64,000 bases of DNA from contig JAXMOL010000038.1 in the NCBI GenBank assembly GCA_034669905.1, forward strand, positions 1 through 64,000, read 5' to 3'. The DNA is from Candidatus Hydrogenedentota bacterium (GTDB lineage: Bacteria > Hydrogenedentota > Hydrogenedentia > Hydrogenedentales > JAEUWI01). Each line of letters begins with the position of its first letter. Position 1 is the first letter of the stretch. This document shows positions 1-28,461 of this stretch, piece by piece. A program made the translations under genes and the position numbers. The notes under the pieces are model-generated. The model saw only the letters and a program-made list of their open reading frames with translations. It was not told the DNA's origin and searched no databases.

Positions 1-120
1 CCGCCGCCGCCGAAGCCGCCGCTGCCGCCGCCGCCGAAGCCGCCGCTGCCGCCGCCGCCGAAGCCGCCGCTGCCGCCGCCGCCGAAGCCGCCGCTGCTGC
101 CACCGCCGAAGCCACCGCTG
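1..120 (-). repeat. 24-bp coding tandem repeat encoding (GSGGFGGG)n
   Basis: GAA triplets at 12, 36, 60, 84 and 108 give a period of 24; at least 5 copies, running off the window edge. Confidence 0.9.
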
Positions 121-1544
121 CCACCGCTGTTACCGCCACCAAATCCGCCCTGGCCACCGCCACCCTGGCTGCTCAGACCGCCGCCACCGAGGGAGCCGAG
201 TACGATTTTGAAAAGGGTCTCGGCGCCTGCGTTGCGCAATTCGTAGTAACGGGTTTCTACATCTTCAAAGGATTCCCGCTGAATAATCGTCGGCTTACTG
301 ATAAAAAGAAAGCCCGGTTCAATCGAGTAGGAAAGCCCCAGGGGACGGAGAATCGCCTTCAAGGCGTCGCCCAGTTCGGCATCCTTCAGATTGATGTAGG
401 GAATCATGCCGTCGCTCTTGGCACCATAGAAGTCGTTGACCGATTCAATGTTGAACTGGCTCTGACCCTGTCCAAGTGCACCACCACCAAAGGCACCGCC
501 GCCCAGACGCAATCCACGTCCATCGTCCTCATCGTCGTCACGACGACTGCCGGCACTACGACGTTGGGTCTGGCGCGGGAACGCACCGGGAGCTGCCCCA
601 AAGGCACCGGGGGCGCCGGGAGGGCCACCGAAAGCACCGGGAGCACCGGTGGTCGTCACGGCTTCCCGTTCGGGCTCGACCGCACGTTTGTCCAGGACGA
701 CGTTGATGTCAAAGCTGTCCTGAATGAATTCCGTGACGTCTTTGATGTGAATATCTTCGAATTCGATATTGACCGGGGAAAGGAGCACTTTCTCGATTTC
801 AGTGATTTCGCGCTCTTCTTCGTAGGTTTCTTCAATCTCGGGTACGCGGAAGACATACTGCTTAATACCCGTTGCGTCGGCACCTTCGGGCAGCTGCTTG
901 GACTGCTCAATGTAGCGACGGATTAATTCGCTGTCCTGCTCCACCTGACGAAGTTCATCCGTCATGGCTTCCTGGCTCTGACCCAGGCTCGCCTTGTGCA
1001 GGCCTTCTTTGGCCTCCATGTTATCGGGGTCAAGCTGGAGAACGTGCTTGTAGATCTCGACCGACTGGGTATAGTAGTGGTTTTCGAGATAGAGCTTGGC
1101 ATACTTCAGGTGTTCTTTCACCCGAAGCTGTTTGAGCTCTTCCGGAGAGAGGGAAGGAGTCTCTCCGCCGGCACCGATGGATTCCGGATCATAGGTTTCA
1201 AACACCGGAACCGAGCCAGGCTCGGAACCCACGGACTCCATCATGATCTTAGCGGCGCACTTCTCCAGGAACTGCTTTGCTTCTTCGTATTCCGGATTCA
1301 GTGCCAGCGCACGATTAAACTCCGTTTGCGCCTCGCGATAGCGATCATTCTTATAGAATGACACGCCTTTCCGATACGCTTCCTCCGCCGGTGTGGCGGC
1401 CTGAGCCAGAATAATACGCGAGTCGTTCGCTGCTTCTGTCGATTGACTGGGCTGTGACCCATGAGCAACCAGTGGCAGGATCAGCACCATGGATGACAGC
1501 ATCCAACGCCCTGCGTTGGCGCGCCGCAAATAGCCGTTCTTCAT
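1..1544 (-). CDS. Secretin N-terminal portion (PilQ/GspD-like), truncated at the window edge
   Basis: Not in the ORF track (no stop in the window). ATG at 1544 with AAGGAAG upstream and a signal-peptide-like start. Partial manual translation shows secretin N-domain-like segments (PVNIEFEDIHIKDVTEFIQDSFDINVVLD; INLKDAELGDALKAILRPLGLSYSIEPGFLFIS; ETRYYEL), then a Gly-rich tract. It occupies the pilQ position after pilMN/O/P-like genes. The beta-barrel is not visible. Confidence 0.72.
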   Translation of the reverse strand, partial: MKNGYLRRANAGRWMLSSMVLILPLVAHGSQPSQSTEAANDSRIILAQAATPAEEAYRKGVSFYKNDRYREAQTEFNRALALNPEYEEAKQFLEKCAAKIMMESVGSEPGSVPVFETYDPESIGAGGETPSLSPEELKQLRVKEHLKYAKLYLENHYYTQSVEIYKHVLQLDPDNMEAKEGLHKASLGQSQEAMTDELRQVEQDSELIRRYIEQSKQLPEGADATGIKQYVFRVPEIEETYEEEREITEIEKVLLSPVNIEFEDIHIKDVTEFIQDSFDINVVLDKRAVEPEREAVTTTGAPGAFGGPPGAPGAFGAAPGAFPRQTQRRSAGSRRDDDEDDGRGLRLGGGAFGGGALGQGQSQFNIESVNDFYGAKSDGMIPYINLKDAELGDALKAILRPLGLSYSIEPGFLFISKPTIIQRESFEDVETRYYELRNAGAETLFKIVLGSLGGGGLSSQGGGGQGGFGGGNSGGSGGFGGGSSGGFGGGGSGGFGGGGSGGFGGGGSGGFGGG

Positions 1545-1611
1545 TACCTTGTCTTCCTTCCGCTTTTTCTCAGCACTATACCGTAATGCGCTAATTTGTC
1601 GCAAGCACTGG

Positions 1612-2097
1612 TTACTTTTCGACACTGAGGACAACTGTCTTTCCAAAACGTTCTGCAAACACGGTTGCCGTCTGGCCAACCGGATCAATTTTTTGTAGTT
1701 CAAACTCTTCAAAGCTGTCGCCCTCGTCGTACCACTTGGACGACTTCGTCTTCAGGCGGGCGCGCCATTGCCCCGGTGCTCCCTCCTTGATAGCCAATAG
1801 TTTGATGCCGGCCTCCTCGCCGGTAAGTCTTCCCCGCGGATCGATTTCGGCATCGGAATAGTATGAAAAGGGGTTGCGCTGCGTCAGGGTCCGATAGGAA
1901 CCCGGCACATCCACCAACCGTGGCTCAGGCAGTTTGGCCACCGGCACCTCTCCCGGGCGCGTCGGCAGAACCGGATCCACCTGATCAGGAACAAAAATCT
2001 TGTAGACGTTGAACGCCAGAAAGCCCAGCAAGATCACGAGCACAATGCGCTCCTTGAAGAGCCAGAGCTTCTTAAAAAATTTCAGGATCTTATCCAA
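1612..2097 (-). CDS. PilP/GspC-HR-like bitopic membrane protein
   Basis: 161 aa: N-terminal TM, Pro-rich linker, RNPF motif and small beta domain (IKLLAI...WYDEGDSF). Lies between the pilO-like and secretin genes. Confidence 0.6.
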   Translation of the reverse strand: MDKILKFFKKLWLFKERIVLVILLGFLAFNVYKIFVPDQVDPVLPTRPGEVPVAKLPEPRLVDVPGSYRTLTQRNPFSYYSDAEIDPRGRLTGEEAGIKLLAIKEGAPGQWRARLKTKSSKWYDEGDSFEEFELQKIDPVGQTATVFAERFGKTVVLSVEK

Positions 2098-2154
2098 TGG
2101 TCACACCTGTTTTCGTAGGTTCAACATCACTAGGGGCCGACACGTGCGAACGCA

Positions 2155-3153
2155 TCAATTCGTATACAATACGGTGCGTTTGAACCATTTCCACGCCTTT
2201 CCAAAGGCGCCTGGCTCTTCCATCACCACCTCATCATCAATGGTGCTAAGACCGGGCCGCGCATTCAGGCCCGTGCTGCTGAAGGCCGTCTCGTAGCCCG
2301 CACCCGCGCTGCCACCACCGGCAGTTCCCGCCGGGTCAAAACCTTCTTCCTGCTTCGTACGCAGTAAATACATGTCCACCTGAAGTTGGGGCTCATACTG
2401 GGCAAGGATGTAGGGGTGGGACAGGCGCATCCCCTGAACACTGTAATACGTATCGGCCTGGCGCAGCGTCTCCAGAAACTCAACCAGATCCTTCGTCTCC
2501 ATTCGGAACGAGAGCTTCACGCGCGTATAGTCCACGCCCTTACCGATAAAACCAGAGTTACCCAGCTCTTCAATGCCGACCTGGTAAATACCCAGGGCGT
2601 TGGCATTCATCAACATCTCAATTGCTGAAATACCAAATTCCAGGCGCTCCAGCTGCTGATTCACCAACTCCGCATCAACATCCATTCCCTGCCACTGCTC
2701 GGAATAGGCCACTCCCAACATGGACTGCACCGTGCTTGGAAAGCCCTGGGGCATATTCTGATAGACGAGGGGACCATATTTCTTTTGGGCCTTCTCCCAC
2801 AGCTCCGTCACCATCTTGCGGCTCTCATCACCATACCAGAACTGGAGGATGAACACATCTTCCGGAGGTTTTTCGTGAATGCGCCAGTCGTTGTCCGTAA
2901 AAAACGAGACACGCTGTGCGATGGCCTCACGCCAGGCCTCCACTTTCCCGTTGTGATCCGTGATCACATCCGCGGGGGAAGCGTTGCCAAAAGTCGTTTT
3001 CAGCTTGGCTTCCGTGGCCTGCAGCGACGTGAGCAGCGCCTGGTGCTGCGCATAGCGCTCCAGCTTGGCGGCGAAATAGAATTGATACACGGCAAACACA
3101 CCGGCAAATAAGGCCAGCAAGGCGCCTATGTAGATTACGCGTTCTTTAGTCAT
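2155..3153 (-). CDS. PilO-like alignment-complex protein
   Basis: Start reassigned to MTKERVIYIG (3153), overlapping the upstream stop. N-terminal TM, coiled coil and ferredoxin-like end (VKLSFRMETKDLVEFLETLRQ). Confidence 0.65.
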   Translation of the reverse strand: MTKERVIYIGALLALFAGVFAVYQFYFAAKLERYAQHQALLTSLQATEAKLKTTFGNASPADVITDHNGKVEAWREAIAQRVSFFTDNDWRIHEKPPEDVFILQFWYGDESRKMVTELWEKAQKKYGPLVYQNMPQGFPSTVQSMLGVAYSEQWQGMDVDAELVNQQLERLEFGISAIEMLMNANALGIYQVGIEELGNSGFIGKGVDYTRVKLSFRMETKDLVEFLETLRQADTYYSVQGMRLSHPYILAQYEPQLQVDMYLLRTKQEEGFDPAGTAGGGSAGAGYETAFSSTGLNARPGLSTIDDEVVMEEPGAFGKAWKWFKRTVLYTN

Positions 3154-5371
3154 CGTCTCTCCCTCTGCGGCGGCGGCTGCGACGGTCATCATCATCGTCG
3201 ACACTGGCGCGGGTAGGCGTCGGTGCGACCGCAGCTTTGGGTTTCGCCTCGTAGAACGGGCCATCAAATTCGATGTTCACCACGAAGGAATACACACTGT
3301 TTTCCTCCGTCGGTGTATAGCCAGCGGTACGCGCACCAAAGCCACCCCCAGCATCCGTCCAGGCCTCGTTCAAGATGGAACGATCCACCCGCAATACACT
3401 CGCTTCGCTGAAATGAACTTCCTTCGCACGAAGCGGATCGTTGCTCGCCTGGGTCCGTTCCAATTCCTTCAGCCGCTCCACAAAGTCCTGCACAATGGCA
3501 CCCGACTTGGCGAAGCCTATCACCCGAAGGCCATTGGGCCGGGGAAAGCTGTCCTGGTCCGCATTCAGACCACCTCCCCGACGGCTTCCGCTACGACGTC
3601 GACCGCGACCCCGGTCATCTTCATCCTCGTCGTCACGCATGCCACCGAGCGACAGGGAGCCGGAGCCAAAATTGCTCCCCGTTCCGGAGAGCGAGGGAAA
3701 TCCGGTACTCTTGACCGTGTCCTGGATTTCGGCCGGACCGGCAGCACCCGGAGCACCGCCCGGCAAGCCAATACCCTGATTAAAATTCATACCACCAAAC
3801 AGACCGCCCCGGGGCTCATCATCTCCACCTCCGCGGCGAACGGGAGCTCCGGCACCGCCCTGAGGGGCGATTTCGCCAATGGTGGTGGTCTCAATGGCAC
3901 TAATCCACATCTTCGCAGGCCGCGCATCATTGACAAACGCAAGCTCTTCCAGCCAGAACTGGCGGAATCTCCGCTCGTTGCTCAGGGCCTCGACCTTATT
4001 TTCCAAGCCATTGATGATTCCATTGACCTTCTGGAACTCGCGCAGCTGGGTGGACGCCGGCAAATCGGGACTGTCCATCCGCACTGCCATGGCCAGTTCC
4101 GGGTCATATTGGCGTATCTCTTCCTGTACCCGCTTGATATCGGCCAGGACCCGCTTATCTTCTTCCGCTTTCTGCGGGATAATACAGGCCATCGTCAGGG
4201 CGAGGGAGGCAATCGAAAGGCCCCAGTAAAAGGCGGCTTCCCGGCGGCGCGTGGCCTCCAGGACCCGTGGGGGAATGAGGTTAATTTCGATGGCCACCTG
4301 CTGCTGACAGCGCAGGGCCATGCCCAGTGCCACGCAGGCCTGCTCCGGCTGGTCGCTGACCTGCTGTCCGCCAGGCGCTACCGCCAGACCCGCCAGGGGC
4401 TGGGCTATCCGCACTTCCAGGCCCAATTGGCGCTGCATGTAGGGGATAATATTGCGCAGACAGGCACCACCACCACAGAGGATGACGCGGTTGACCTGAC
4501 CACCACCCGGGAGGGAACGGAAATAGGCAAAGGAACGAACGATTTCGGAAACCATCCGCTGGAGCACGTTGCCGATGATTTCGCCCCCCTGACCATCGGT
4601 CTGGGGGTCACCGGTGGGCGCAAAGCCCCGCTCCCGTTTGATGCGCTCGGCATCTGAGAAATTCTGCTTGAAGGCCGACCCGATGGCGAGCGTAATGTCA
4701 TTGCCGCCAATGTTCAGCGGACGCGTGAAGCGAAACTGCCCCTCGCGCTCAATCACGATGTCGGTCGTCGCGGCACCCATATCAATAAGGGCCACGCATT
4801 CACCGGAATCACCAAACTCGCCCGTGTGCTTGAGCCAGTTATAGGCCGCCAGGGGGTTAACGTCCGCCACGTCGATCGTGCGGCGCGACGATTGCAACAC
4901 CTCAACCAGCTTGTCCACCACGTCCACTTTGATGGCCGCCATCATGACATCGTAGCCGCCCGCTTCCGTGCGACCAAGAATCTGATAGTCCATCGCAATC
5001 TGATCCAGCGAGAAGGGAATCTGCTGCTGAATCTCGTAGCGCACAATCTGGCTGACTTTATATTCCGGCACCGGGGGTAAGGCACGGCTGCGGGTAAAGA
5101 CAGATTGACCCGGAACGCCAAATATCGCCTTACGCGTCCGAACCTTGGATTCCTTTAGGAGATCCGCCAGGGCCTTTTCACGTATAGCTTTGCGCTCCGA
5201 CTCATCCAATGCAGGATCGGAGTTAAATTCCCGCTGGTAATACTTTACCAGCTGGTGACCTGTCTTGGTCGGTGCCAGTTCCGCCAAGCGAATGGCGCTC
5301 GCACCAATATCCAAGACCAGTCGTTTTTTAGGTCCGCCAGTCATTCCAGCCATCGTATACTTTGTTCCCAT
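3146..5371 (-). CDS. pilM: Fused PilM-PilN type IV pilus assembly protein
   Basis: Actin-like PilM domain (LDIGASAIRLAEL, LIDMGAATTDI, IGGNDIT, ILCGGGA), followed in frame by the PilN INLIP motif, TM, coiled coil and PilN-like domain. Confidence 0.9.
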   Translation of the reverse strand: MGTKYTMAGMTGGPKKRLVLDIGASAIRLAELAPTKTGHQLVKYYQREFNSDPALDESERKAIREKALADLLKESKVRTRKAIFGVPGQSVFTRSRALPPVPEYKVSQIVRYEIQQQIPFSLDQIAMDYQILGRTEAGGYDVMMAAIKVDVVDKLVEVLQSSRRTIDVADVNPLAAYNWLKHTGEFGDSGECVALIDMGAATTDIVIEREGQFRFTRPLNIGGNDITLAIGSAFKQNFSDAERIKRERGFAPTGDPQTDGQGGEIIGNVLQRMVSEIVRSFAYFRSLPGGGQVNRVILCGGGACLRNIIPYMQRQLGLEVRIAQPLAGLAVAPGGQQVSDQPEQACVALGMALRCQQQVAIEINLIPPRVLEATRRREAAFYWGLSIASLALTMACIIPQKAEEDKRVLADIKRVQEEIRQYDPELAMAVRMDSPDLPASTQLREFQKVNGIINGLENKVEALSNERRFRQFWLEELAFVNDARPAKMWISAIETTTIGEIAPQGGAGAPVRRGGGDDEPRGGLFGGMNFNQGIGLPGGAPGAAGPAEIQDTVKSTGFPSLSGTGSNFGSGSLSLGGMRDDEDEDDRGRGRRRSGSRRGGGLNADQDSFPRPNGLRVIGFAKSGAIVQDFVERLKELERTQASNDPLRAKEVHFSEASVLRVDRSILNEAWTDAGGGFGARTAGYTPTEENSVYSFVVNIEFDGPFYEAKPKAAVAPTPTRASVDDDDDRRSRRRRGRDDD

Positions 5372-5501
5372 ACCCCCTCAGACGCAGATAGCTTTGCCGG
5401 ACGACAAAGCCCTGTTTCCACGCTGAATTGGTCCGTTACGTTGCGAAGGTAAATAGTGTTAATATGCCTATTTCCCGATATAGCGTAAACCCTTGTGCGT
5501 T

Positions 5502-5530
5502 ATTGTAGTATACACTTAAATTCTTGTCAA
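5502..5530 (-). promoter_or_regulatory. Sigma-70-type promoter for the pilMN-O-P-secretin genes
   Basis: Minus strand TTGACA-17 nt-TACAAT, about 130 bp upstream of pilM. Confidence 0.75.
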
Positions 5531-5557: not shown

Positions 5558-5570
5558 CCCCTCCCAACCC

Positions 5571-6980
5571 TTAGCGCACATCCCGTGCACAGCGGAAACC
5601 GTAGTCATTTCGTCCGGCAGATACCCGATCATAGTGGCGCTTGGCCGTCCGTACATCAAAGCGACCCGAGCGGAAACTACCCCCCCGAAGCACCCGAAAC
5701 ACTTGACCATAGTCTTTTGTCACCACTTTATTGCCCTCATAGGCCTGATACCAGTCCTGAGTCCATTCATAGACGTTGCCTGCCATGTCTACACACCCAT
5801 AGGGGGACAGACCCTCAATATAGGCACCCCGCTCGGCGGGCGCGTTTTCGTCGGCATCCTCCGAATTACACAAGGCCGGGTCATAGGTGTTGCCCCAGGG
5901 AAACTCCAATCCCTGGCTCCCCCGTGCAGCCTTCTCCCACTCCATCTCCGTCGGCAACCGTTTCCCAACCGCCTGCGCATAGTCCACTGCCTGCGTCCAA
6001 GTCACCCCCACGACCGGATAATTATCCCAGCCACTGGGAAACTCATGCGCTGCAAAGACTTCCTTAAATTCTGCGTTAGTAACCTCGTATTTGTCAATGT
6101 AAAAAGCGGGGAGGGTAATCTCGACCTCGGGCTGCTCATCCGGAGCACGCTTTGACCCCCGTATAAAGGGGCCTTCGGGCACGAATACCATACCGGCCGG
6201 CACGTCGCCCGCCTTCATCTCCAGGGCCAATCGGAGGGACTCATTGGGAGCCAGGGTGATTTTTTCGCCCGTCATGATGTGTCCCCGGGTGTGGACATCG
6301 ACAATATAGTTCCCGGGCAGCAGCGTAAATTCGGTCGGTGTCAGCTTCGCCTGCTTCGCGCCGTTGAGCCAGATATCGGCCCCCGTCGGGCGCGAGGTCA
6401 CCAGCAGTTTCGCTTCTTGGGGTTTCAGGGCCACCGTCGTGTTCAGGCCATATTGGTGGTCGGCCTTCACGTCAATCACATCCGATTTATACGCATAAAA
6501 GTCGTCCAGCCGCACCTCATACTGGTGCTCCCCGATGCGCACCGGGTGTTTCTGCACCGGCGTTTTCCCGATTCGGGTCTCCCCGTCGAGGATCACATCG
6601 GCACCGGGCGGCGTCGAGGTCACGGTCAGATAGCCCACCAGGGGTTCCATTTCGATCACAAACGACTGGGGCGGGCCCTCTTCAATGCGGATGACATCTT
6701 CCGTATCGCGGTAGTTTTCCTGCTTCAGCAAGACATCCAGCGATCCGGGGGGCAGACCACGGAGGGTCGCCGGGGTGGTTTTTTCAATACCGCCCGGCAA
6801 AAGGAGGGTCGCACCCGATTCGGGCGCGCTGTCGATGGTCACCACCGTCTCCGGCACCGGGTCGGCACAACCGCCAAGCCAGGCCAGAACAAGCAGCGGA
6901 CAGCAAAGGAGACGCGCACAGCGGGCCCCTGGGCCCACGTACCTGCCTCGGTCTCCCTTCGACACCTCAAGCCCCGGCAT
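5571..6980 (-). CDS. PEGA-domain plus FGE-sulfatase (C-lectin fold) probable lipoprotein
   Basis: ATG at 6980 with a GGAG RBS; lipobox-like LGGC; PEGA repeats (VTSTPPGADV, VTSRPTGADI); FGE motifs (IDKYEVTN, RLPTEMEWEKAARG, DMAGNVYEW, RGGSF, GFRC). Lacks the catalytic Cys pair of true FGE. Confidence 0.88.
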   Translation of the reverse strand: MPGLEVSKGDRGRYVGPGARCARLLCCPLLVLAWLGGCADPVPETVVTIDSAPESGATLLLPGGIEKTTPATLRGLPPGSLDVLLKQENYRDTEDVIRIEEGPPQSFVIEMEPLVGYLTVTSTPPGADVILDGETRIGKTPVQKHPVRIGEHQYEVRLDDFYAYKSDVIDVKADHQYGLNTTVALKPQEAKLLVTSRPTGADIWLNGAKQAKLTPTEFTLLPGNYIVDVHTRGHIMTGEKITLAPNESLRLALEMKAGDVPAGMVFVPEGPFIRGSKRAPDEQPEVEITLPAFYIDKYEVTNAEFKEVFAAHEFPSGWDNYPVVGVTWTQAVDYAQAVGKRLPTEMEWEKAARGSQGLEFPWGNTYDPALCNSEDADENAPAERGAYIEGLSPYGCVDMAGNVYEWTQDWYQAYEGNKVVTKDYGQVFRVLRGGSFRSGRFDVRTAKRHYDRVSAGRNDYGFRCARDVR

Positions 6981-7108
6981 GTCAGCGACTCCAATTCTAC
7001 TGCCTCCCAGGCAGGGTTTCCGCACGTGCCCAATCCCCGTCACGTGCAACGGCCCTCGCGTTATAGCGGATTCATTATAGACAAACGGGGTGAAAATTAC
7101 ATCCCCCC

Positions 7109-10100: not shown

Positions 10101-10279
10101 TCCAGGATAATCGTATCATCCCCCGTGGCGGCCGCGAAGGCACTTTCCACATCGGTGTAGGTACAGGTGGCGCACACCTCCAGCACGACTGCCTGGGTGG
10201 GTGCGGCCATGAAGACCAGGGCCGCCAGCAGCACACCCGTCCATACACCTGCCTTCAAACGCTGATTCATACTGCACAT
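7109..10279 (-). CDS. Large secreted protein with N-terminal right-handed beta-helix
   Basis: 1056 aa; GGAGG RBS; signal peptide ending TQA; CTYTDVESAFAAA..DTIIL cap followed by parallel beta-helix-like repeats. The remainder is acidic and unrecognised. Confidence 0.7.
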   Translation of the reverse strand: MCSMNQRLKAGVWTGVLLAALVFMAAPTQAVVLEVCATCTYTDVESAFAAATGDDTIILDGPATYTLAAGLVVDAARDGLTIRGTSQVNPDTIEVAFAGGPVITVDTGVEFNAEGFTIADGSTGVLVMADASFTMERCLVKDISGIGVDCVDVNQVRLESSIITNCGAEATKLDIGGSLDIIQCTLLSNGSFGVNAVAGLAQVEATVIHDSDDGTNGLSGTATTLAIDGDWVTDAAGNPLAAPAGVTDANPISVVLDPATDFEPAGFPGEFVPGQQQTTGAAATLVTPSPARDFTDLARDPGDLTVGADEVAAYGGGTPGWKECYVYQLNEYRAYVGEGVITVEVITDGVSLAGAVMFIEMVGTPVTSEFLGPYLITVSGIDSNYGYLDIPIDLDEFMTAFPSGGGVPANYQTDYLLYLDTSGGVAPNVPTLHGTPTGGVSETVPFGGSRTFGLDTFPPTIVTDFDLLADQYLAPAADGEGLDGPAPSGAAVFPATAWGAGALLGDVGASAGHLNGTAGDPNIFFSALSGGLSYTVRVTFQDTGSGFETNNMPITRSTTGPANDDVLYREFENYPGLAWWGNNASENSEFSAVGVGLDVTYTNPTGTELVVDWAFSGLTFNTTRPLQQWHTVANIRVTDRAGNEATLDPSGDAYIALKPLHMWWFPAYEFGAGSPPLTPGALARIKSGPSGRETTEPRFTWGIERSGGGQTPADPLPCPPAGRWRIYRAQTPGVAATPWIDVTSDAATGGAYGSADGWSNWLNPLRDATISLSTYFNDTATLRDLINNAGGAGDEFLLAVYGYDEAGNVQQFVPGPGNLASVDDLYDFATGVEVAYNRWINPGVSASLGLDTRVEPLFWHNNTAGGANNTVDGDERIFGAVSRIPLPEEFCQRVEGRFTISLGLPSGDAGNLPQVWFELLEDGRQVAQGITAPNASATEHVLTIPEDLFSLPSTPVAFLNLGQADCYGGAGPEQDRLGDDGDPDAEPGFRRRDVKYVLRVSAGVHVVDDFGNPTFDGLGDPIYAFDQTPATVEFTVTAGDGGSKAPEQAIKIFKRE

Positions 10280-18314: not shown

Positions 18315-18478
18315 TGCTACTTCACCTTTAGCTGGCCGCGATCCGTGCGGCCCCTTCCCAAGACGGGAACCCGAACCCACTGTTCGGACTCCAACCGCGC
18401 GCGGGATCCATCCCGCCCGTATCTTGCTCTCTCCTGGTCCTGCGACCGGTGTCTGTGCCGGTTACCGAGGCACATACA

Positions 18479-20111: not shown

Positions 20112-20504
20112 CTATTGTTGGGTAACATAGGTTACGAAGCGTTCGCGCCGCCCGTCGAACATCTCTACATTATAGGTGACCCGATAAAGGTCCACATCAC
20201 TGCTGATGCGCTTGACCGAGCTGGTCCAGGATTTATACAGCCCATAGGTACCTGCCGCGGCGTCCAGGTTGTGGTAGGCATTGGCGGCAGCCCATTCGTT
20301 GAGTAAGGGGCCCACGCCACCCGCCCGCAGCTTGCCCAGCTCGGTCTTGGCGAGGAAGGCCACCTGCTGCCGTTCGGCGGCAAGGCGGGATTGCTGGATG
20401 GCCACGGGGAACAGTCTCATAATCGCGATGATGGCCACCGCAAGAATGGTGAGGGCCACCATCACTTCAACCAGTGTAAAGCCGTGTTGCTTGTTCTTCG
20501 TCAT
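20112..20504 (-). CDS. PilV/GspI-like minor pilin (130 aa)
   Basis: Start MTKNKQHG/FTLVEVMVAL with a GAGG RBS; small size and position fit. Confidence 0.85.
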   Translation of the reverse strand: MTKNKQHGFTLVEVMVALTILAVAIIAIMRLFPVAIQQSRLAAERQQVAFLAKTELGKLRAGGVGPLLNEWAAANAYHNLDAAAGTYGLYKSWTSSVKRISSDVDLYRVTYNVEMFDGRRERFVTYVTQQ

Positions 20505-20517: not shown

Positions 20518-21450
20518 CTAGAAATTCTTGGGAACTTCTGTCCGTCCGGTGGACTTGAATACGTGAATCTTGCGATACAACATGTTGGAGGAGCCATCGG
20601 GATTGATGAGTCGCTCCGCCTCGGGATCCACCAGGCGATCGCCCGCATCCCGACTCGCCATGGGCGCTATGTAAATACTGAAACGCTCGCCGTTACTCGC
20701 CGCGAGACGACCCGACGGCTTGAATACATGGGCGGCAAAGTTTTCGGCCACAAAGCCCGTGGTGCCGTTGGCATAGTCAGCAAAGCTCAGGGGATCCAGG
20801 CCGGTGGGGATGCCCAGCGCGGCCGTGATGCGGCTCAGGCCCATTTCGCGCACAAAGTTCTCGGTCGCATCGTTCCGATAGTTGGAGCGCCCCAGTTCCA
20901 GGTAGAAATTCGCCGGAACCAGCGGGTCGCCGCCCGAGGGGAGTTCGGGATTCATCAGCAGGATAGACATGTCCTGCGGCAATTTCGTGAAGGTGCCGGC
21001 GGACGTGGGAATGGGCACATAGTGCTCGCTCAGTCTGCCCGTCGTGGTCGGCAATTGATACATAATGGCCGCCGCTTCAATCTGTCGTATGGGGTTACCC
21101 GAGACGCTGTCGACGATAGGGTTGGCGACGGCCACCGCCGGGTCAGCCCCGTCTTCGTCGGACGGCTCACCAGCGGGCGTCGAATCGACAAGCGTTGCCT
21201 CGTTTTCGGACCAGTTGTCCATGGAATACACCACCGCCGTATTCACGTTGTAGGTCGTGGCGTAGATCTGCGCGGCACGGAGCATGCCCGACACTTCCTG
21301 TACGGAACGTCGGAACTCGTCGCGGGAGAAAGCACCCAGCTTCGCCAGACCCGGAATGGCAACAGCGGTCAGCAGCACAATAATACCGAGGACAACCATC
21401 AATTCGACCAGCGTAAATCCCCGCTGATATCGGTCGGATTCTTGTCTCAT
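20518..21450 (-). CDS. FimU/GspH-like minor pilin (310 aa)
   Basis: RG/FTLVELMVV prepilin motif, LRAAQIYA helix and C-terminal VFKPSG and STGR motifs typical of H-type subunits. Confidence 0.82.
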   Translation of the reverse strand: MRQESDRYQRGFTLVELMVVLGIIVLLTAVAIPGLAKLGAFSRDEFRRSVQEVSGMLRAAQIYATTYNVNTAVVYSMDNWSENEATLVDSTPAGEPSDEDGADPAVAVANPIVDSVSGNPIRQIEAAAIMYQLPTTTGRLSEHYVPIPTSAGTFTKLPQDMSILLMNPELPSGGDPLVPANFYLELGRSNYRNDATENFVREMGLSRITAALGIPTGLDPLSFADYANGTTGFVAENFAAHVFKPSGRLAASNGERFSIYIAPMASRDAGDRLVDPEAERLINPDGSSNMLYRKIHVFKSTGRTEVPKNF

Positions 21451-21528: not shown

Positions 21529-21535
21529 GAAGTCA

Positions 21536-22408
21536 TTAGTTGTAGAACTTCATGAACGTCTGTCCACGATCCCAATTGTTGATGTCGTCACCACCACCCA
21601 TGAGTTCGGGTTCCTGCCCTTGATCATAGTGGCCGGTGCCCGTCATGAAATCGTACCCGGTATCGTGGTAGAGATCGCCGTCATAGCGGGCCTGACCGGA
21701 AATCAAGTTCTCGCCGTTGGACCAGATAAACACGTCCGTTTCCCGGGGGGCCGGGGCACCGATTGAGGGCAGGGTCACGCTGGTCTCCGGATCGATGAGG
21801 CCCGAGGGGAAATTGTCCCCCAGCGACGTTACACCCAGGGTGAACACGTCTTCTGAAGCGCCCAGCACGGTATCGCCGGGCAGCACCTCAGCCGCATCTT
21901 CCGGGGGACTATAGATTCGAAAGGGAACCGGGCCGTCACTGGCGCGCCAGGGGCCGGGATAGATATTGTAGAGGTTGCCCCACGGGTCAAAGGACAGTTC
22001 GCTCATGTAGGAGGTGCCCAGATTACGGACCACGTCGGCATTGTAGTAGGGCTCGAGGGCCACATCACCCAGCACCGCACGCCCCTTACGCAAAATGGCG
22101 TAGGTAGCGAAGGTGTACTCCGCGATGGCGTCTTCAAACTGGTCTGCGGTCCAATCCTTCATTTCCGTTCCGCCCACGGCGGTTTCTATCGCGCTGGTAC
22201 TGATAATATCCTTCAGGCTACTGCGCCCCGCATCCGATAGCAGCTTGGTAATGGCCAGTTCGATGTTGCTGATTTCCGCCTGGGCCCGCACTGCCCGGCC
22301 TTTTCGAATCCATTTCTGCACATTGGGTATTGCGATGGCGGCGAGGATGGAGATGATTGCCATCACCACCAACAACTCTACGAGGGTGAAACCGTGCTTC
22401 TTGCGCAT
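21536..22408 (-). CDS. Probable major pilin, GspG-like and unusually long (290 aa)
   Basis: GGAGG RBS; HG/FTLVELLVVM; GspG-type DPWGNLY, WSNGEN and DDINNW motifs; no cysteines. Confidence 0.8.
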   Translation of the reverse strand: MRKKHGFTLVELLVVMAIISILAAIAIPNVQKWIRKGRAVRAQAEISNIELAITKLLSDAGRSSLKDIISTSAIETAVGGTEMKDWTADQFEDAIAEYTFATYAILRKGRAVLGDVALEPYYNADVVRNLGTSYMSELSFDPWGNLYNIYPGPWRASDGPVPFRIYSPPEDAAEVLPGDTVLGASEDVFTLGVTSLGDNFPSGLIDPETSVTLPSIGAPAPRETDVFIWSNGENLISGQARYDGDLYHDTGYDFMTGTGHYDQGQEPELMGGGDDINNWDRGQTFMKFYN

Positions 22409-22485: not shown

Positions 22486-23721
22486 CTAATTGTTAATCTG
22501 GTCGCCCAGGGTGAAGATGGGCAGGTACAACGACACCACGATAAAACCGATGATGCCACCCAGCACCACGATAATCATGGGCTCCATCAGGGTCAGCATG
22601 GCCTCGACGGCCACTTCCACTTCCTGGTCATAAATATCGGCCACCTTGTTCAGCATGGAATCGAGCTGACCGGTCTCTTCACCCACGTCAATCATGTTGA
22701 CCACCATGGGGGGGAATACTTTGGTCTCATCCAACGGCGCGGCGATGGTGTCGCCTTCCTTAATGCTGTCGTGCACCTTGTCTACCGCATCCTGAATCAC
22801 GCTGTTACCGATGGTTTCCCGGGTAATCTTCAGGGCCTGAAGAATCGGCACACCGGAAGAAATCAGCGTACCCAGGGTACGGGCGAATCGGGCCACACCA
22901 ATCTTGGTGACCAGGTCGCCCACCAGGGGCATCTTCAGGCTGACCACATCCACGATGCGCTGCACGAAACGGAATTTCATGGAAAGTTTCAGGGCGATGA
23001 TACTGGAGTTAATTACCAGCAGGATCATCCACCACTTGTACACCATGAAATCACCGCACGCGATGAGGAACCGGGTCGGTGCCGGCAGTTCGCCGCCCAT
23101 CTCGCTGAAAATCTCGTCGAAAACGGGCACCACCTTCACCAGCAGGAAGGACACAATCGCCGCCGCAATCAGCAACACGGCAATGGGGTACACCATGGCA
23201 CCCTTCACGCGCCGCTTCAGGGCTTCGCGCCGTTCCATGAAGGTGGCCAGACGCTGCAGCACCACTTCCAACATACCACCGACTTCACCGGCCTTCACCA
23301 TGTTCACGAAAAGGCGGTCAAACTGCTTGGGGTGTTTGGCCAGGGCTTCCGAGAAAGTCGCACCGGTCTGAATATCGGTGGCGCATTCCTTGAGAATGTC
23401 CCGGAGCTTACAGGGTTTGAGCTGGGCAATCAGCACGTTAATACTACGCAGCAGCGGCAGACCGGCGTCGATCAGGGTGGAAAGCTGACGGGTCATCGTC
23501 ACGATTTCCTTGGTCTTCACGCCACCGAAATAAAGCTCGTCGATGCCCTTTTTCTCTTTGCGCGCACGTTTCTCGTCGCGCTTCGACGCTTCACGCACCG
23601 TCGTCGGGTAAAGCCCCAGCGTCCGCACGTCGTTAATGGCCAGTGCTTTACTGTCGGAATTCACCACACCAGTGACGGTCTGGCCTTCCTTGTTGGTGGC
23701 CTTATAGAAATACTTGGGCAT
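22486..23721 (-). CDS. pilC: Type IV pilus platform protein PilC
   Basis: T2SSF-family motifs RQLSTLIDAGLPL, AGEVGGML, GEETGQLD and EP..I; next to pilB/pilT. Confidence 0.93.
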   Translation of the reverse strand: MPKYFYKATNKEGQTVTGVVNSDSKALAINDVRTLGLYPTTVREASKRDEKRARKEKKGIDELYFGGVKTKEIVTMTRQLSTLIDAGLPLLRSINVLIAQLKPCKLRDILKECATDIQTGATFSEALAKHPKQFDRLFVNMVKAGEVGGMLEVVLQRLATFMERREALKRRVKGAMVYPIAVLLIAAAIVSFLLVKVVPVFDEIFSEMGGELPAPTRFLIACGDFMVYKWWMILLVINSSIIALKLSMKFRFVQRIVDVVSLKMPLVGDLVTKIGVARFARTLGTLISSGVPILQALKITRETIGNSVIQDAVDKVHDSIKEGDTIAAPLDETKVFPPMVVNMIDVGEETGQLDSMLNKVADIYDQEVEVAVEAMLTLMEPMIIVVLGGIIGFIVVSLYLPIFTLGDQINN

Positions 23722-23736
23722 GACTTGGTTCCTTCA

Positions 23737-25482
23737 TCAGTCTTCGTAAAGGTCCGTGTGATAAAGCACTTCTTCCGCGGTCGTCACGCCCTGGACGGCC
23801 TTCAACAGACCGGCTTCACGCAGGGTGATCATGCCGAGATACTTCCGGCAATAGCGCCGCAACTGAATCGACGTCGCACTTTCCAGGATCAAATCCCGGA
23901 TACCTTCATCCACCGTCACCATTTCGTAGAGACCGGTACGGCCCGAGTAGCCCGTAAATTCACAGCTCTCGCACCCGTTGGCCTTCACCAGCTGAAGCTT
24001 GGGATCATTGCGCCACGCCGGGGGCAACCCGAGGGCTTCCATCTCTTCTTCGTCCGGTTTGTAGGTTTCTTTACAGAAACGGCAGACCTTACGGCACAGC
24101 CGCTGGGCCAATACCGCTTCCAGGGAGGCCGCAATCAGGAAGGGTTCCACGTCCATATCCAGCAGACGGGTGATCGTTTCCGGAGCACTGTTCGTGTGCA
24201 GCGTGCTCAGCACCAGGTGACCGGTGAGGGAGGCTTCCACCGCGATCTGGGCGGTCTCCAGGTCACGAATCTCACCGACCATCACGATGTCCGGGTCCTG
24301 ACGCAGGATAGAGCGCAGACAGCGGGCAAAGGTCAGGCCCACGTCGTCGTTCACATTACACTGGATCAACTGGTCAATCTGGAATTCGACGGGATCCTCG
24401 GTGGTAATGATTTTTACACCGGGTTCGTTGAGCAGGTTCAGACAGCCATAGAGGGTCGTCGTCTTACCCGAACCCGTAGGCCCCGTCACCAACATGATGC
24501 CGTTGGGTTTGCGAATTACGTTGTCGATGGAATCAAAGACGTCCTGGGGGAAGCCCAGGGCAATCAGATCGTGTTTCACCGCGTTCCGGTCAAGAATACG
24601 CATCACCACGCTCTCGCCGTGGAGCACCGGCAGGGTCGATACACGAATGTCGATAATCGTGTCGCCCACCTTCAATTCAATACGGTTATCCTGGGGCATG
24701 CGCCGCTCACTGATATCCATATTGGAGATAACCTTGATACGCGAGGTCAACGCAATGGCCAGGTGCCGCGCCGGACTCACAATCTCCTGGAGAATACCGT
24801 CCACACGGATGCGGATACGGAAATCTTCTTCATAGATTTCAAAGTGAATATCCGAGGCACGCTTCTGCACCGCCTCCAGGAACACGAGGTTGACGATCTT
24901 GATGACTTCCGGCTGCTGCGCCAGTTCCACCAGGTTGTCGACGTCACCCGTTACCTGCTGGAGCCCCATCTCCTCCATCGAAAGTTCGCTCGTGCCCACC
25001 CGCTCTTGCAGGTCCACGAGCATTTCGTGGATCGAATCCCCCTCGAAACTGTAATTGGACTTCCACGCCGTCGCCACATCAAGCTCGTTGCTGACCGCAC
25101 CCTGCACCAGGAGGCCCGTGATCTGTTGCAGATCATCGAGCACCTGAATGTTGAGCGGGTCGGCCATGGCCACGATGAGCTTTTCATCGGTCTTGCGGAT
25201 GGGAATGACGCTGTAAAACTTCGCCACGTCCGCAGTCAGCGTGCGGATCGTTTCTTCCGGTATCTTCAGCTTGGACAGATCGACACGCTCCATGCCCGAC
25301 TGGACACCGAGTGACTCGATAATATCCTGCTCTTCGCAGAGGCCCATGGTCACCAGCACACGGCCGAGCATGTCGCCCGTCAACCGTTGCCGTTGCAGGG
25401 CCTCGTCCAATTGCAGGGGACTGATAACACCCTGTTCGACGAGGATGTCACCCAGTTGCTTTTCGCGTGATCCAAGAGCCAT
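23737..25482 (-). CDS. pilB: PilB-family extension ATPase (second copy)
   Basis: MshEN-like N-terminus, ASDIHFE, GPTGSGKT, EDPVE, LRQDPD, GEIRD, TLHTN and tetra-Cys motif. Confidence 0.92.
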   Translation of the reverse strand: MALGSREKQLGDILVEQGVISPLQLDEALQRQRLTGDMLGRVLVTMGLCEEQDIIESLGVQSGMERVDLSKLKIPEETIRTLTADVAKFYSVIPIRKTDEKLIVAMADPLNIQVLDDLQQITGLLVQGAVSNELDVATAWKSNYSFEGDSIHEMLVDLQERVGTSELSMEEMGLQQVTGDVDNLVELAQQPEVIKIVNLVFLEAVQKRASDIHFEIYEEDFRIRIRVDGILQEIVSPARHLAIALTSRIKVISNMDISERRMPQDNRIELKVGDTIIDIRVSTLPVLHGESVVMRILDRNAVKHDLIALGFPQDVFDSIDNVIRKPNGIMLVTGPTGSGKTTTLYGCLNLLNEPGVKIITTEDPVEFQIDQLIQCNVNDDVGLTFARCLRSILRQDPDIVMVGEIRDLETAQIAVEASLTGHLVLSTLHTNSAPETITRLLDMDVEPFLIAASLEAVLAQRLCRKVCRFCKETYKPDEEEMEALGLPPAWRNDPKLQLVKANGCESCEFTGYSGRTGLYEMVTVDEGIRDLILESATSIQLRRYCRKYLGMITLREAGLLKAVQGVTTAEEVLYHTDLYED

Positions 25483-25488
25483 AAGCGT

Positions 25489-26592
<1,104 letters not shown>

Positions 26593-26625
26593 GAAATATA
26601 TCTCCCAAGCTTGGCCTCGTCAATC

Positions 26626-28461
26626 TCAACTACGAACCAGTTTTTCCAGGGGTTCGTCCACACGGGTGCGGCGGTTTACTTCTTCCACCGTGGTGATACC
26701 GTTCAACGCCTTCTGGAAGGCATCTTCACGCATGGTCACCATACCCTCTTCACGGGACGCACGCTTAATGGCCATGGACGACTCTTTCGCCATGAGCATC
26801 TCGCGGATACGGTCCGAAGTAATCAGCAATTCATAGGCACCCAGTCGGCCGGCGTGCCCGGTACCGTTGCAGTTGTCGCAGCCGGCCCCGTGGTAAAATT
26901 CCGAGTTCTCCATGTCCACCGGAATGCCCAGCCGCTCGATCTCCCGGGCTTCCGGCACGTAGGTCTCTTTGCAGTTCGTGCAAATCGTCCGCACCAGGCG
27001 CTGCGCCAGAATGGCGCGCACACCGGAGGCCACCAGGAAGGGCTTGATGCCAATATCCACCAGACGGGTGAAGGAACTGGCCGTATCGTTGGTGTGGAGG
27101 GTACTGAATACCAGGTGACCCGTCAGGGCCGCCTTAATGGCGATTTCCGCCGTCTCCGCATCACGAATTTCACCGACCATCACGATGTTCGGGTCCTGAC
27201 GCATAATGGCACGCAGGGCCCGGTTGAAATCGAACTTGATCTCGTGGTTGATCTGCACCTGGTTGATACCGGCCAACTGATATTCGACCGGGTCCTCAAC
27301 GGTGATGATCTTCGTATCGGGCTTGTTCAGCGTGTGGAGCGACGCATAGAGGGAGGTCGTCTTACCCGAACCCGTGGGCCCCGTCACCAGGATAACCCCG
27401 GTGCTCAGTCCCATCAGCTTTTCCCAGGCACGCTGGTGCTCCGGACAAAAGCCCAACTGCCCCAGGCCCAGCAACAGACCGCTCTTGTCGAGAATACGCA
27501 TTACGATACTCTCGCCAAAGTAGGCCGGCAGGGCGCTGACACGCAAATCCACCACCTTCCCGCTCATGGTCATCTTAATACGACCATCCTGGGGAACGCG
27601 GCGCTCGGTAATATCCATACCCGACATGATCTTCAGGCGGGAAATGATAGAGGCCTGGGCCCGCTTCGGCGGCGGGGGCATCAATTGCATGACGCCATCC
27701 ACGCGATAACGGACCTTGACGTCGGTCTTGGAGGGCTCCACGTGAATATCACTGGCCCGCAGACGGAAGGCTTCGAGAATCAGCTGATTCACATAGCGCA
27801 TGACGGGACTGTCGTCGTCGTCGTCATCTCCGTCTTCTCCGGCAAGCGCGCCGGCATCCATCGCATCAATGCTGATACTGCTCAGGCTGATGTCGCTCTG
27901 GCTCATGCTGCCCAGACTGCTCATGGAAGAGTCGAGGGAGCTCAGGTTGGACATGGTACTGAGGGTGCTCATGCTGCTCGCCGAACTCACGGAAGACAAC
28001 ATGGTCTCTACCGATTGGTCCTGCAGGCCATAGCACTTGTTCAGCGCCACCGACACCTCTTCGCCCGTGGCCAGGACCGGCTCTACATTGCGGTCAAGCA
28101 GGCGGCGGAGGTTATCGAGGTTGTTGATGTTGGTCGGGTCGGCCGTGGCGATAACGATGGTATTGCCCCGCTCCTCAATGGGAACCACCCGATACAGGGT
28201 CGCAATACTGCCGTCGATCAGGCCCCGGATACGTTCCGGGATCTCCCGATCACTCAGCTTGACGATGGGAATCCCCAGTTGATCAGCCAGGCCTTCCGTA
28301 ATATGGTGCTTGCTGATGTAGTTCAGGCGTACCAGGATCTCACCGATCTTGCGGTGAGCCATCGTGGTCTGCTGTTTGTGGATGGCCTCATCAAGCTGTT
28401 GTTGCTTGATGACACCTTTCTCCACCAGACGCTGCCCGAACAGCGTGTACGTGGTTTGCAT
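26626..28461 (-). CDS. pilB: PilB-family extension ATPase (first copy) with a Ser-rich linker
   Basis: All secretion-ATPase motifs plus tetra-Cys; Ser/Met and poly-Asp linker between N1 and N2. Confidence 0.92.
   Translation of the reverse strand: MQTTYTLFGQRLVEKGVIKQQQLDEAIHKQQTTMAHRKIGEILVRLNYISKHHITEGLADQLGIPIVKLSDREIPERIRGLIDGSIATLYRVVPIEERGNTIVIATADPTNINNLDNLRRLLDRNVEPVLATGEEVSVALNKCYGLQDQSVETMLSSVSSASSMSTLSTMSNLSSLDSSMSSLGSMSQSDISLSSISIDAMDAGALAGEDGDDDDDDSPVMRYVNQLILEAFRLRASDIHVEPSKTDVKVRYRVDGVMQLMPPPPKRAQASIISRLKIMSGMDITERRVPQDGRIKMTMSGKVVDLRVSALPAYFGESIVMRILDKSGLLLGLGQLGFCPEHQRAWEKLMGLSTGVILVTGPTGSGKTTSLYASLHTLNKPDTKIITVEDPVEYQLAGINQVQINHEIKFDFNRALRAIMRQDPNIVMVGEIRDAETAEIAIKAALTGHLVFSTLHTNDTASSFTRLVDIGIKPFLVASGVRAILAQRLVRTICTNCKETYVPEAREIERLGIPVDMENSEFYHGAGCDNCNGTGHAGRLGAYELLITSDRIREMLMAKESSMAIKRASREEGMVTMREDAFQKALNGITTVEEVNRRTRVDEPLEKLVRS

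Follow-up and report, generated by a model that had tools for sequence, protein, structure and literature searches.

All genes of the cluster lie on the minus strand of the window (the whole 64,000-nt stretch of DNA that was analysed), at the coordinates given in an earlier note on this DNA. The inventory drawn up there (two PilBs, PilT, PilC, PilM-N, O/P genes and a secretin) is confirmed by both genes and motifs, with only the N-terminal half of the secretin falling inside the window. No prepilin peptidase is encoded within the locus. The features are the following.

3..1544, minus strand: secretin N-terminal half, with TPR, a weak STN-like match and a Gly-rich linker.
1612..2097, minus strand: PilP/GspC-slot protein, 161 aa, named by position; conserved, with an N-terminal membrane anchor, a Pro-rich linker and no family match.
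2155..3153, minus strand: PilO-slot membrane protein, 332 aa, named by position; conserved, no family match.
3146..5371, minus strand: PilM-PilN fusion, Amuc_1101-like, 741 aa (NF045709, E 1e-76; TIGR01175 above cut-off).
5571..7049, minus strand: PEGA and FGE-sulfatase-like protein, probable lipoprotein (PF08308, PF03781), a slot it also occupies in 14 of 20 relatives.
7109..10279, minus strand: secreted partner, 1056 aa, with a signal-peptide-like N-terminus, a beta-helix, three predicted Ig/FN3 domains and the tail EQAIKIFKRE.
10488..18314, minus strand: giant K/PilX-slot tip pilin, 2608 aa, with GspK motifs around large inserts, no Glu5 and no terminal beta-strand.
18479..20098, minus strand: J/PilW-slot minor pilin, 539 aa (PF07963; weak TIGR02599 and TIGR01711 matches).
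20112..20504, minus strand: I/PilV-slot minor pilin, 130 aa (TIGR02523, PilV, is the best model, with E 2e-8 but a score under cut-off).
20518..21450, minus strand: H-slot minor pilin, 310 aa (PF07963; position conserved).
21536..22408, minus strand: G, probable major pilin with an enlarged GspG fold, 290 aa (284 mature), from a structure model and phylum homologs.
22486..23721, minus strand: PilC platform, 411 aa (PF00482).
23737..25482, minus strand: PilB2, second extension ATPase, 581 aa (MshEN and T2SSE domains).
25489..26592, minus strand: PilT, retraction ATPase, 367 aa (TIGR01420, 461 bits against a cut-off of 319).
26626..28461, minus strand: PilB1, extension ATPase, 611 aa (MshEN and T2SSE, the ATPase domain).
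28492..28719, minus strand: two sigma70-like sites, each with a perfect TTGACA, between gspM and pilB1, a possible own promoter.
28797..42282, minus strand: a separate, complete canonical T2SS, gspC-D-E-F-G-H-I-J-K-L-M (PF11356, PF21305/PF03958/PF00263, PF00437, PF00482, PF08334, PF21687).

PilB1 and PilB2 each possess Walker A and B and two CxxC motifs, and share 46% identity across the ATPase domain. The best model for both is TIGR02538 (612 and 603 bits, under its cut-off of 676), while TIGR02533 (GspE) scores 584 and 567 bits; PilT carries the motif AIQNLIRE. In quick trees that sampled the best 80 of at least 601 matches to this PilT and included few proteobacterial references, PilT, PilC and both PilBs group with proteins of Planctomycetota and Verrucomicrobiota, whose loci have the same layout. 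PilT forms a clade with PVC PilT (SH-aLRT 100) and falls among the PilT sequences of the tree, apart from PilU-like paralogs. PilC joins PVC PilC (98) inside T4aP PilC (97), PilB1 groups with the upstream PilBs of PVC loci (91), and both PilBs are placed with PilBs (89). None of the alternatives for PilC could be rejected by AU tests, neither a placement with GspF (p 0.24) nor one with the second PilC of the genome and its relatives (p 0.09).

Gene order points in the same direction. The arrangement pilB-pilT-pilB is present in 29 of 40 PVC-dominated loci versus none of 38 other loci, and the same layout with a giant K (1283–2134 aa) is found in Planctomycetota and Verrucomicrobiota with no T2SS linkage. 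Trees and shared loci thus agree with the view that the filament is distinct, as the system forms a lineage of its own with relatives in PVC bacteria. Within Ca. Hydrogenedentota, homologs of G were detected in 124 of 135 genomes. Synteny in related genomes, which had been suggested as a check, is well preserved: the order pilB1>pilT>pilB2>pilC>G>H>I>J>K>partner is kept in 19 of 20 relatives, and in the remaining one the contig ends early (in one of the 20, G001, the H, J and partner genes fall under the BLAST cut-off). The pilT gene is inside the operon in all 20 relatives, and pilM-N>O>P>secretin follows the K-partner part in 15. A literature search, chiefly outside subscription journals and confined to main texts, found no description of this operon.

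The five pilins have exactly the sizes reported previously (290, 310, 130, 539 and 2608 aa) when translated from ATG starts with a Shine-Dalgarno-like sequence. The GspG motifs proposed for the major subunit are also present in G, as DPWG, W-S-x-G and GGGDDINNW. The structural model of G (pLDDT 84.9) matches EpsG (4lw9; Z 7.8, rmsd 3.0, 113 aligned residues) and PulG (5wda; Z 6.6), versus Z of 3.3 or less for the compared T4aP pilins; a Foldseek search with this model returned nothing at E≤0.001. After removal of the first 30 residues, the G profile still matches GspG (E 6e-6 and 3e-4) and no PilA. The GspG profile, in turn, matches the operon pilins of Verrucomicrobiota (E 5e-8 to 8e-6). Pairwise hhalign aligned only the helix stretch of G with GspG (prob 93) and nothing with PilA; against PDB sequences, the G profile hit the shared N-terminal helix and nothing else, and PF08334 did not match G. 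Taken together, the model and profiles predict that G is closest in fold to T2SS EpsG/PulG, a middling match with surface inserts, and that the major pilin of the operon is not of the PilA type. The co-occurrence of a PilT-containing T4aP-type motor with a GspG-fold major pilin and a GspK-type tip pilin, central to the earlier note, is therefore supported by predicted fold and profiles.

The argument for a T2SS-like pilin set from the order G-H-I-J-K does not hold, because HIJK is common to T4aP and T2SS (PMC13533445 and PMC10191384).

Could the motor instead build an ordinary T4aP shaft, with only the tip being unusual? The genome encodes, outside the cluster, four near-identical (98–100%) 136-aa PilA-like pilins and three paralogs, and small PilA-like pilins are present in 93 of 94 phylum genomes. 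If the motor polymerised these, G would serve only as an adaptor or as a minor pilin within a dedicated priming complex. This would fit the absence of a terminator between G and H that might suggest higher expression of G, and there is a cyanobacterial precedent of different minor-pilin sets on one shared machine, described in PMC13759059. A canonical PilA and PilY1 serving this motor from elsewhere had been named as an outcome that would count against a distinct filament. The small pilins do exist, but the same genome has a second, conventional-type T4aP set, pilB-pilT (contig C3), pilC (C23) and pilM...pilQ (C19), that could use them. The PilT of this set groups with Myxococcota, Nitrospirota and Acidobacteriota PilT (SH-aLRT 99), as does the PilC of the set with proteins of those phyla (81). 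The set is the natural user of the small pilins. Moreover, G keeps Glu5 and its gene directly follows pilC, the major-pilin slot as in gspF-gspG. We therefore consider a PilA-type shaft unlikely and return to G as the shaft subunit.

The K subunit does contain the reported GspK motifs: DESSKLN (residue 593), LNVNTA (2355) and TTRSDVYEI...AIYER (2571–2619), with residues counted from the GTG at 18380. Its inserts show a weak lamin-tail match and eight DxDxDG-like loops, and a protein-atlas look-up of an insert gave a weak lead only (0.82, LTD/T2SSK/HHH cluster). Across the clusters K ranges from 1809 to 3332 aa, and its C-terminal profile, which had no significant match among PDB sequences, is present in 80 of 94 genomes that are ≥90% complete. 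None of 33 giant K proteins has a hydrophobic terminal strand, and 17 of them end no more than one residue from YER; in the comparison set, the strand is present in 10/10 Hydrogenedentota T2SS GspK proteins and 5/5 giant K proteins of Planctomycetota. In the comparison of K tails, homology between A3 and A8 has prob 93 and E 3e-7.

Two genes conserved inside the cluster, 7109..10279 and 5571..7049, were left out of the earlier note. The first of them encodes the secreted partner, the last 480 residues of which are predicted to form beta-sandwiches. Its conserved end consists of a QP[IV]K-x-F-x-RE tail after the three predicted Ig/FN3 domains. Among 150 partner homologs, a QP[IV][KR] tail was found in 92 under a strict and in 122 under a loose definition, compared with 0 and 41 among 1196 long control ORFs; beyond QP[IV]K the tails are variable, with F at position 6 in only 32%. 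The partner profile is present in 88 of 94 genomes ≥90% complete, and the gene is downstream of K in 59 of 59 cases with both on one contig, one of which (G041) spans an assembly gap. That gap, a run of N, accounts for an apparent K-partner fusion in G041, which was dropped as Rosetta-stone evidence. A HMMER scan for partner homologs yielded 275 clusters; a word-index search for longer homologs found none, and the profile had no significant match among PDB sequences. PF05567 (PilY1) has no matches in the genome, and the control was equally silent in all 14 genomes.

Since K lacks its terminal strand and is followed by a tailed, secreted non-pilin protein, the proposal that the tip function is built into the minor pilins is incomplete. 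By analogy, the partner is likely a PilY1/MshQ-like strand donor and a candidate tip adhesin. In MSHA, donation of a strand by a non-PilY1 protein, from MshQ to MshP, has been modelled (PMC13533445); as here, a large non-PilY1 gene directly follows that of the K homolog and is the proposed donor of the last strand. However, the motor of our cluster groups with PVC proteins, and the likeness is one of gene position and proposed role.

The remaining envelope genes recall those of the Akkermansia MUL2 locus (Amuc_1098-1102), where two small genes and a secretin with TPR likewise come after a fused PilM-N. On TIGR01175, which has a cut-off of 133 bits, the PilM-N fusion reaches 157 bits, and it matches PF11104 with E 1e-42. 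NF045709 is its best NCBIfam match, although at 259 bits it is far below the equivalog cut-off of 650, as are the proteins of five PVC genomes, and the full secretin of a relative reaches 132 of 750 bits on NF042912. A further difference is that motor, pilins and envelope genes are here in one cluster. We infer that MUL2 is the best functional analog. PilN, PilO and PilP are assigned from position and topology, with no family matches. Profiles of the O- and P-slot proteins had no significant match among PDB sequences, and the P-slot profile compared with the GspC of the window, taken as a single sequence, gave a probability of 2%.

The C-terminal half of the secretin, with the secretin domain, lies at the end of contig C14 (144022-145524) and shares 78% identity with the complete secretin of G068, a relative; the assembly break inside the gene falls in a Gly-rich repeat. 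Two other candidates for the missing half were set aside: C5:151474 resembles the N-terminal part but has no secretin domain, and C8:2810 is a different secretin. The full secretin of the relative scores 139 bits on GspD, 137 on PilQ and 132 on Amuc_1098, all under cut-off, and the secretin tree did not resolve its placement.

Taken as a whole, these data make it reasonably likely that the conserved operon builds a retractable type IV filament of the Hydrogenedentota-PVC lineage, with an enlarged GspG-fold shaft and a tip made of H, I, J, the giant K and the partner. The pairing of a retraction motor with a T2SS-fold main subunit and a giant tip subunit would make it a little-studied kind of retractable fibre. 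The intact PilB1, PilB2, PilT, PilC, PilM-N and secretin genes, kept in conserved order, would provide the machine parts, and G, with its predicted EpsG/PulG fold and surface inserts, the shaft. As K ends at or just after the 'YER' strand and the partner in a conserved tail, that tail may complete the beta-sheet of K in trans, license I-J-K assembly and anchor the partner under load, by analogy with PilK-PilC/PilY1 and MshP-MshQ. The PilBs, working on PilC, would then push the fibre out through the secretin, while retraction by PilT would bring any polymer, particles or cells attached to it up to the surface. We judge the cluster to be a T4aP variant that would serve polymer or particle capture. 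One difficulty for this explanation is the passage through the secretin of K and the partner, of about 280 and 110 kDa.

In an alternative view, no long surface pilus would be made, and a short periplasmic GspG-type endopilus would cycle through the secretin as a retractile piston, exporting the partner or importing polymers. The GspG-fold major pilin, the GspK-type K, the very large tip and a P-slot protein whose sequence has a GspC-like membrane anchor, not a lipoprotein signal, are all consistent with such a device. So are the 48 H-X9-DG pilins of the genome (the one checked being PF07596) and the requirement of Akkermansia MUL2 genes for mucin uptake, as summarised in PMC13174399. On the other hand, a complete export T2SS adjoins the cluster, strand addition holds a partner on the tip while the T2SS lets its cargo go (PMC13533445), and PilM-N, PilT and MshEN-bearing PilB are T4aP traits. 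We regard a piston as improbable and continue to favor the retractable filament.

The adjoining T2SS, just upstream of the pilus cluster, is absent from the earlier note. The idea that its pseudopilin genes were recently duplicated and captured by a T4aP motor is highly improbable: the operons do lie side by side in this genome and in 13 of 20 relatives, and the AU test left PilC with GspF unrejected, but G/H/I/J/K show no BLAST similarity to the window's own GspG/H/I/J/K at E≤1e-5, the giant-K layout of Planctomycetota and Verrucomicrobiota has no adjoining T2SS, and PilT, PilC and PilB group with PVC orthologs. Because the layout is common to those phyla and a separate T2SS lies alongside, the system is probably not a hybrid in the sense of a recent chimera. 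Membership in the Verru_Chthon family likewise did not withstand the model cut-offs. The Verru_Chthon cassette (TIGR02596, 02598, 02599, 02600) also has four minor pilins, a giant member in the K slot and hosts related to PVC bacteria, but the matches of H, I and J are N-terminal only and sub-threshold (21.7 of 70, 25.5 of 51.4 and 27.5 of 256.5 bits), and TIGR02600 has no match to the giant K at E≤0.01. Of the earlier interpretation, the T4aP-type motor with a GspG-fold pilin is supported, and a hybrid of recent origin, the order argument and Verru_Chthon membership are not.

The cluster shares with T4aP the extension and retraction ATPases, platform, PilM, secretin and four core minor pilins, and also the large secreted gene after K, here with a candidate donor tail. 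It differs in that two PilBs flank PilT, PilM is fused to PilN, the major pilin is predicted to be GspG-like and is twice the usual size, K is 1809–3332 aa long, and the conserved C-terminal region of the partner is predicted to form Ig/FN3 domains, not a PilC/PilY1 beta-propeller. A beta-propeller tip adhesin of this type is usual, but not universal, in T4aP. With T2SS (EpsG 4lw9, PulG 5wda, GspK 3ci0) it shares the predicted major-pilin fold, GspK-type motifs and lack of Glu5 in K, and the position of G directly after the platform gene. In contrast to T2SS, it has PilT, a PilM-N fusion instead of GspL/M, and no GspD-type N0 domain (PF21305 matches only the neighboring GspD); moreover, GspK provides its terminal strand in cis, whereas the K of the cluster is devoid of it (0/33 versus 10/10 same-phylum GspK). 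In cyanobacterial PilX and Thermus ComZ, the K subunit is also enlarged by inserted domains and proposed to be a cap or adhesin; according to PMC13759059, these are 460–770 aa in mature form (Synechocystis) and proposed to replace PilY1, whereas the 2608-aa K appears to need a partner.

A bolder reading, which we put forward tentatively and consider rather doubtful, is that this is an ancient, unrecognised filament subtype of Hydrogenedentota and PVC bacteria: a PilT-retracted T2SS-fold fibre with two extension motors and a giant GspK cap. In Hydrogenedentota, the last strand would have moved to a novel family of Ig/FN3 adhesins with an assembly-licensing role, and the fibre, with dozens of DUF1559-type pilins, would draw in polymers and be the machine behind PVC pilus-linked glycan uptake. 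T2SS is thought to have derived from T4aP through loss of PilT (PMC10191384). A lineage that has PilT and PilM, yet a GspG-fold major pilin and a GspK-type tip, may show what a relative of the T4aP-T2SS transition looks like. With it, one can ask directly if pilins of the GspG type natively form long retractable fibres. The K of Planctomycetota, with its last strand in cis, and that of Hydrogenedentota, with the strand missing and a tail on the next gene, together put the strand-licensing model (PMC13533445) to a natural test in which the donor is not PilY1. The same layout may exist in cultured Planctomycetota and Verrucomicrobiota; if so, the system would be tractable and could bear on attachment to and uptake of complex glycans.

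Finally, sigma70-like sites over the whole region number 9, against 8.2 by chance. Since this count is close to chance, only the position of the two sites in the gspM-pilB1 gap is suggestive.

All pilus genes of the window are on the minus strand, directly downstream of a complete T2SS.

Gene clusters of the window (coordinates, strand, content)
42282-28797 (-), complete ordinary T2SS, gspC to gspM, directly upstream of the pilus operon
from 28461 down (-), pilus operon: pilB1, pilT, pilB2, pilC, five pilin genes (G, H, I, J, K), secreted 1056-aa protein, PEGA + FGE-sulfatase-like, PilM-N fusion, PilO slot, PilP slot, secretin N-half

The gene set recognized in the earlier note was borne out: the genes were found, the pilins, counted from ATG starts, are 290, 310, 130, 539 and 2608 aa long, and the Walker motifs of PilB1, PilB2 and PilT are intact. 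MshEN and zinc motifs are also present in both PilBs, as is an AIQNLIRE motif in PilT. The last gene encodes the secretin N-half and runs off the contig; the missing secretin domain (PF00263, E 7e-36) was located at the end of another contig, C14, with 78% identity to the complete secretin of a relative. The split falls within a Gly-rich repeat. Genome completeness is 95.7%. A stand-alone secreted protein (C5:151474-152544) resembles the secretin STN and Gly-rich linker (57% over 76 aa) and has no secretin domain. Our literature search did not find a description of this operon; the words 'Planctomycetes' and 'Verrucomicrobia' are absent from the main text of PMC6668835, whose supplements may classify such systems.

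Since a complete T2SS, passed over in the earlier note, lies next door, with a GspG of 141 aa (PF08334) and a GspK of 421 aa (PF21687), the pilus operon is no substitute for an absent one. The 336-nt gap between the gspM side of the T2SS and pilB1 contains two TTGACA-type sites; such sites are no commoner in the region than chance predicts. The listed GspH ORF (33427-35046, -) has a GC-rich repetitive 5' extension and shows its prepilin motif only from about residue 268, which puts the real start codon further downstream. Between gspC and the gene for a secreted-looking 4105-aa protein (45111-57428, -) is encoded a 796-aa protein (42649-45039, -) with a zinc-metalloprotease-like motif, HEIGHFYGLTH, and no Pfam match. 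The 4105-aa protein, possibly a T2SS substrate or a surface protein, is internally duplicated, carries an EG repeat and two PKD domains, and ends in a hydrophobic, sorting-like tail. Upstream of its gene, the ABC transporter, ABC_transp_aux (PF09822) and DUF4340 genes (57799-62921, -) are what we take to be a Gld-like set.

The affinities of the motor were assessed in quick trees of sequences chosen by similarity to the operon PilT. PilT, which is 84% identical to that of the nearest named locus (Candidatus Hydrogenedentota), clusters with PVC PilT (SH-aLRT 100), and PilC groups with PVC PilC (98) inside T4aP PilC (97), apart from GspF. Both PilBs group with PVC PilBs (88), apart from GspE, and PilB1 pairs with the upstream PVC copy (91). 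AU tests on PilC rejected neither its grouping with GspF (p 0.24) nor that with the genome's other PilC group (p 0.09), and the secretin tree placed the operon secretin without resolution.

The operon appears to work like a T4aP, but its probable major pilin is, by its predicted fold, not of PilA type; from the T2SS it is set apart by having PilT and by lacking GspL/M and the cis strand. A T2SS-like major pilin had been proposed, and at the level of predicted fold the likeness is real. The model of G, the probable major pilin (pLDDT 84.9), matched Vibrio EpsG with Z 7.8 (rmsd 3.0, 113 of 119 residues) and PulG with Z 6.6, compared with 4.8 and 3.8 for T4bP pilins and at most 3.3 for T4aP pilins; a Foldseek search with the model returned no significant match. 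Without the common N-terminal 30 residues, the G profile matched GspG proteins, with no PilA-like pilin among the matches, and a GspG profile matched Verrucomicrobiota operon pilins. The invariant residues of G include DPW and DD-x-x-N motifs, both also present in the GspG sequences compared. Two other points of the earlier note found no support. The H-I-J-K order, taken there as a T2SS mark, occurs in both T4aP and T2SS according to PMC10191384 and PMC13533445, and T2SS-like minor pilins are already known in T4P (PMC5131608). Verru_Chthon models matched N-termini only, below the cut-off. Outside the operon, the genome encodes an orphan G paralog (C8:8300-9382; 39% identity), in which a search found no prepilin cleavage motif, and a G fragment (C65:29053-29268).

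The giant K lacks Glu5, has acidic DxDxDG-like loops, and its GspK-type motifs are split by inserts of ~480 and ~1700 aa; lamin-tail models match weakly here and in 4 of 9 relatives. As described in PMC13533445, the K sheet receives its final strand either in cis, from GspK itself, or in trans, from the C-terminal ~10 residues of PilC/PilY1; trans supply is modeled likewise for MshQ. Of 33 giant K proteins from Hydrogenedentota, not one has a hydrophobic strand following the 'YER' strand; 17 of them end within one residue of 'YER' and the remainder have short, mostly polar tails. Such a terminal strand is present in 10 of 10 T2SS GspK proteins of the phylum (mostly F/Y-R-I/V-L-D/E-W). Five of five Planctomycetota giant K proteins, whose C-terminus is homologous to that of the Hydrogenedentota ones (prob 93, E 3e-7), also have a terminal strand, e.g. 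EEPRVLLFKE. Elsewhere in the genome, two tandem I-J-K-like triplets (C8:68365-74765) include K-like proteins of ~600 aa that end in 'WREL' and apparently carry their own last strand.

The secreted protein encoded after K (10279-7109, -), likewise passed over in the earlier note, has a signal-peptide-like N-terminus and a variable N-terminal part. Among 25 scanned homologs, 10 have a beta-helix in this part, 6 have TIG and none has a catalytic domain. Its conserved C-terminal region is predicted to form three Ig/FN3 sandwiches (pLDDT 73) followed by a free tail. The tail motif QP[IV][KR] occurs in 92 of the top 150 homologs, or 122 on a loose match, and in 0 of 1196 long genome ORFs used as a control (41 loosely). 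The family comprises 275 clusters and is present, nearly always in single copy, in 88 of 94 phylum genomes; in all 59 cases with both genes on one contig it is downstream of K. The missing final strand of K together with the conserved tail leads us to infer that this partner probably donates the last strand of K and would be a PilY1 analog with a different fold.

Assembly would begin with the partner tail joining K, after which I-J and H would be added to give the tip complex. G subunits would be added by PilB1 and PilB2 acting on PilC, the connection to the secretin would run through PilM-N, O and P, and PilT would perform retraction. We consider such a machine, a retractile filament of G tipped by K and its partner, probable. 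As its most likely job we propose, only tentatively, that the two large tip proteins capture polymers, particles or cells and that the filament then retracts. A functional analog is Akkermansia MUL2 (PilM-type amuc_1101 and neighbors), which has been tied to attachment and to the uptake of mucin (PMC13174399); the best match of the operon PilM-N is the Akkermansia PilM-N model (Amuc_1101-like), with a score far below the model cut-off. The large tip size would also suit a possible alternative, a short endopilus that retracts and serves export or import.

Type IV systems abound in the genome, which encodes 8 PilB/GspE and 10 PilT-family ATPases and has 78 prepilin-motif matches. Among its pilins are four near-identical, unlinked 136-aa PilA-like proteins (98-100% identity; C16:126229, C2:213597, C55:32555, C6:189207). 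Homologs of these occur in 93 of 94 phylum genomes and are multi-copy in many relatives. That they serve the operon motor is possible but less likely, as a second pilB-pilT, pilC, pilM...pilQ set, of Myxococcota/Nitrospirota/Acidobacteriota affinity, is a more natural machine for them. Four relatives (G082:C4, G003:C285, G006:C49, G011:C251) have ORFs of 858-2227 aa in which the globular domain of the small PilA-like pilins is repeated two or three times. The 48 dispersed prepilins of ~275-355 aa with an H-X9-DG motif and near-identical N-termini form a PVC-like expansion; the one tested is DUF1559.

Returning to the proposed filament of G, homologs of this pilin are present in 124 of 135 phylum genomes and 84 of 86 high-quality ones. 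Among 20 relatives with a G homolog, picked to have long contigs and to span the families, the order from pilB1 through pilT, pilB2, pilC and G-H-I-J-K to the partner is kept in 19, counting G001, where three genes are below the BLAST cut-off; in the exception, the contig stops after J. The pilM-N, O, P and secretin block comes next in 15, and gspL/M precede the operon in 13. K ranges from 1809 to 3332 aa and the partner from 898 to 2627 aa in Hydrogenedentota. The pilB-pilT-pilB arrangement occurs in 29 of 40 PVC-dominated loci (three with non-PVC record titles) versus 0 of 38 loci of other phyla. Nine PVC loci were extended downstream: in eight, enlarged pilins precede a single ORF in the K slot that is 1283 aa or longer (range 1283-2134 aa, with one ending at a contig edge), and in the ninth this ORF is split in two. 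The K slot of an Armatimonadota locus encodes a 923-aa protein. An Amuc_1101-like PilM-N gene was found elsewhere in the genome for all five PVC genomes searched. In two Verrucomicrobiota loci (L123:9074-16129 and L127 from 10903), secreted proteins of very large size (2352 and 3494 aa) are encoded after the giant K, the former with subtilase, PPC and P-domains.
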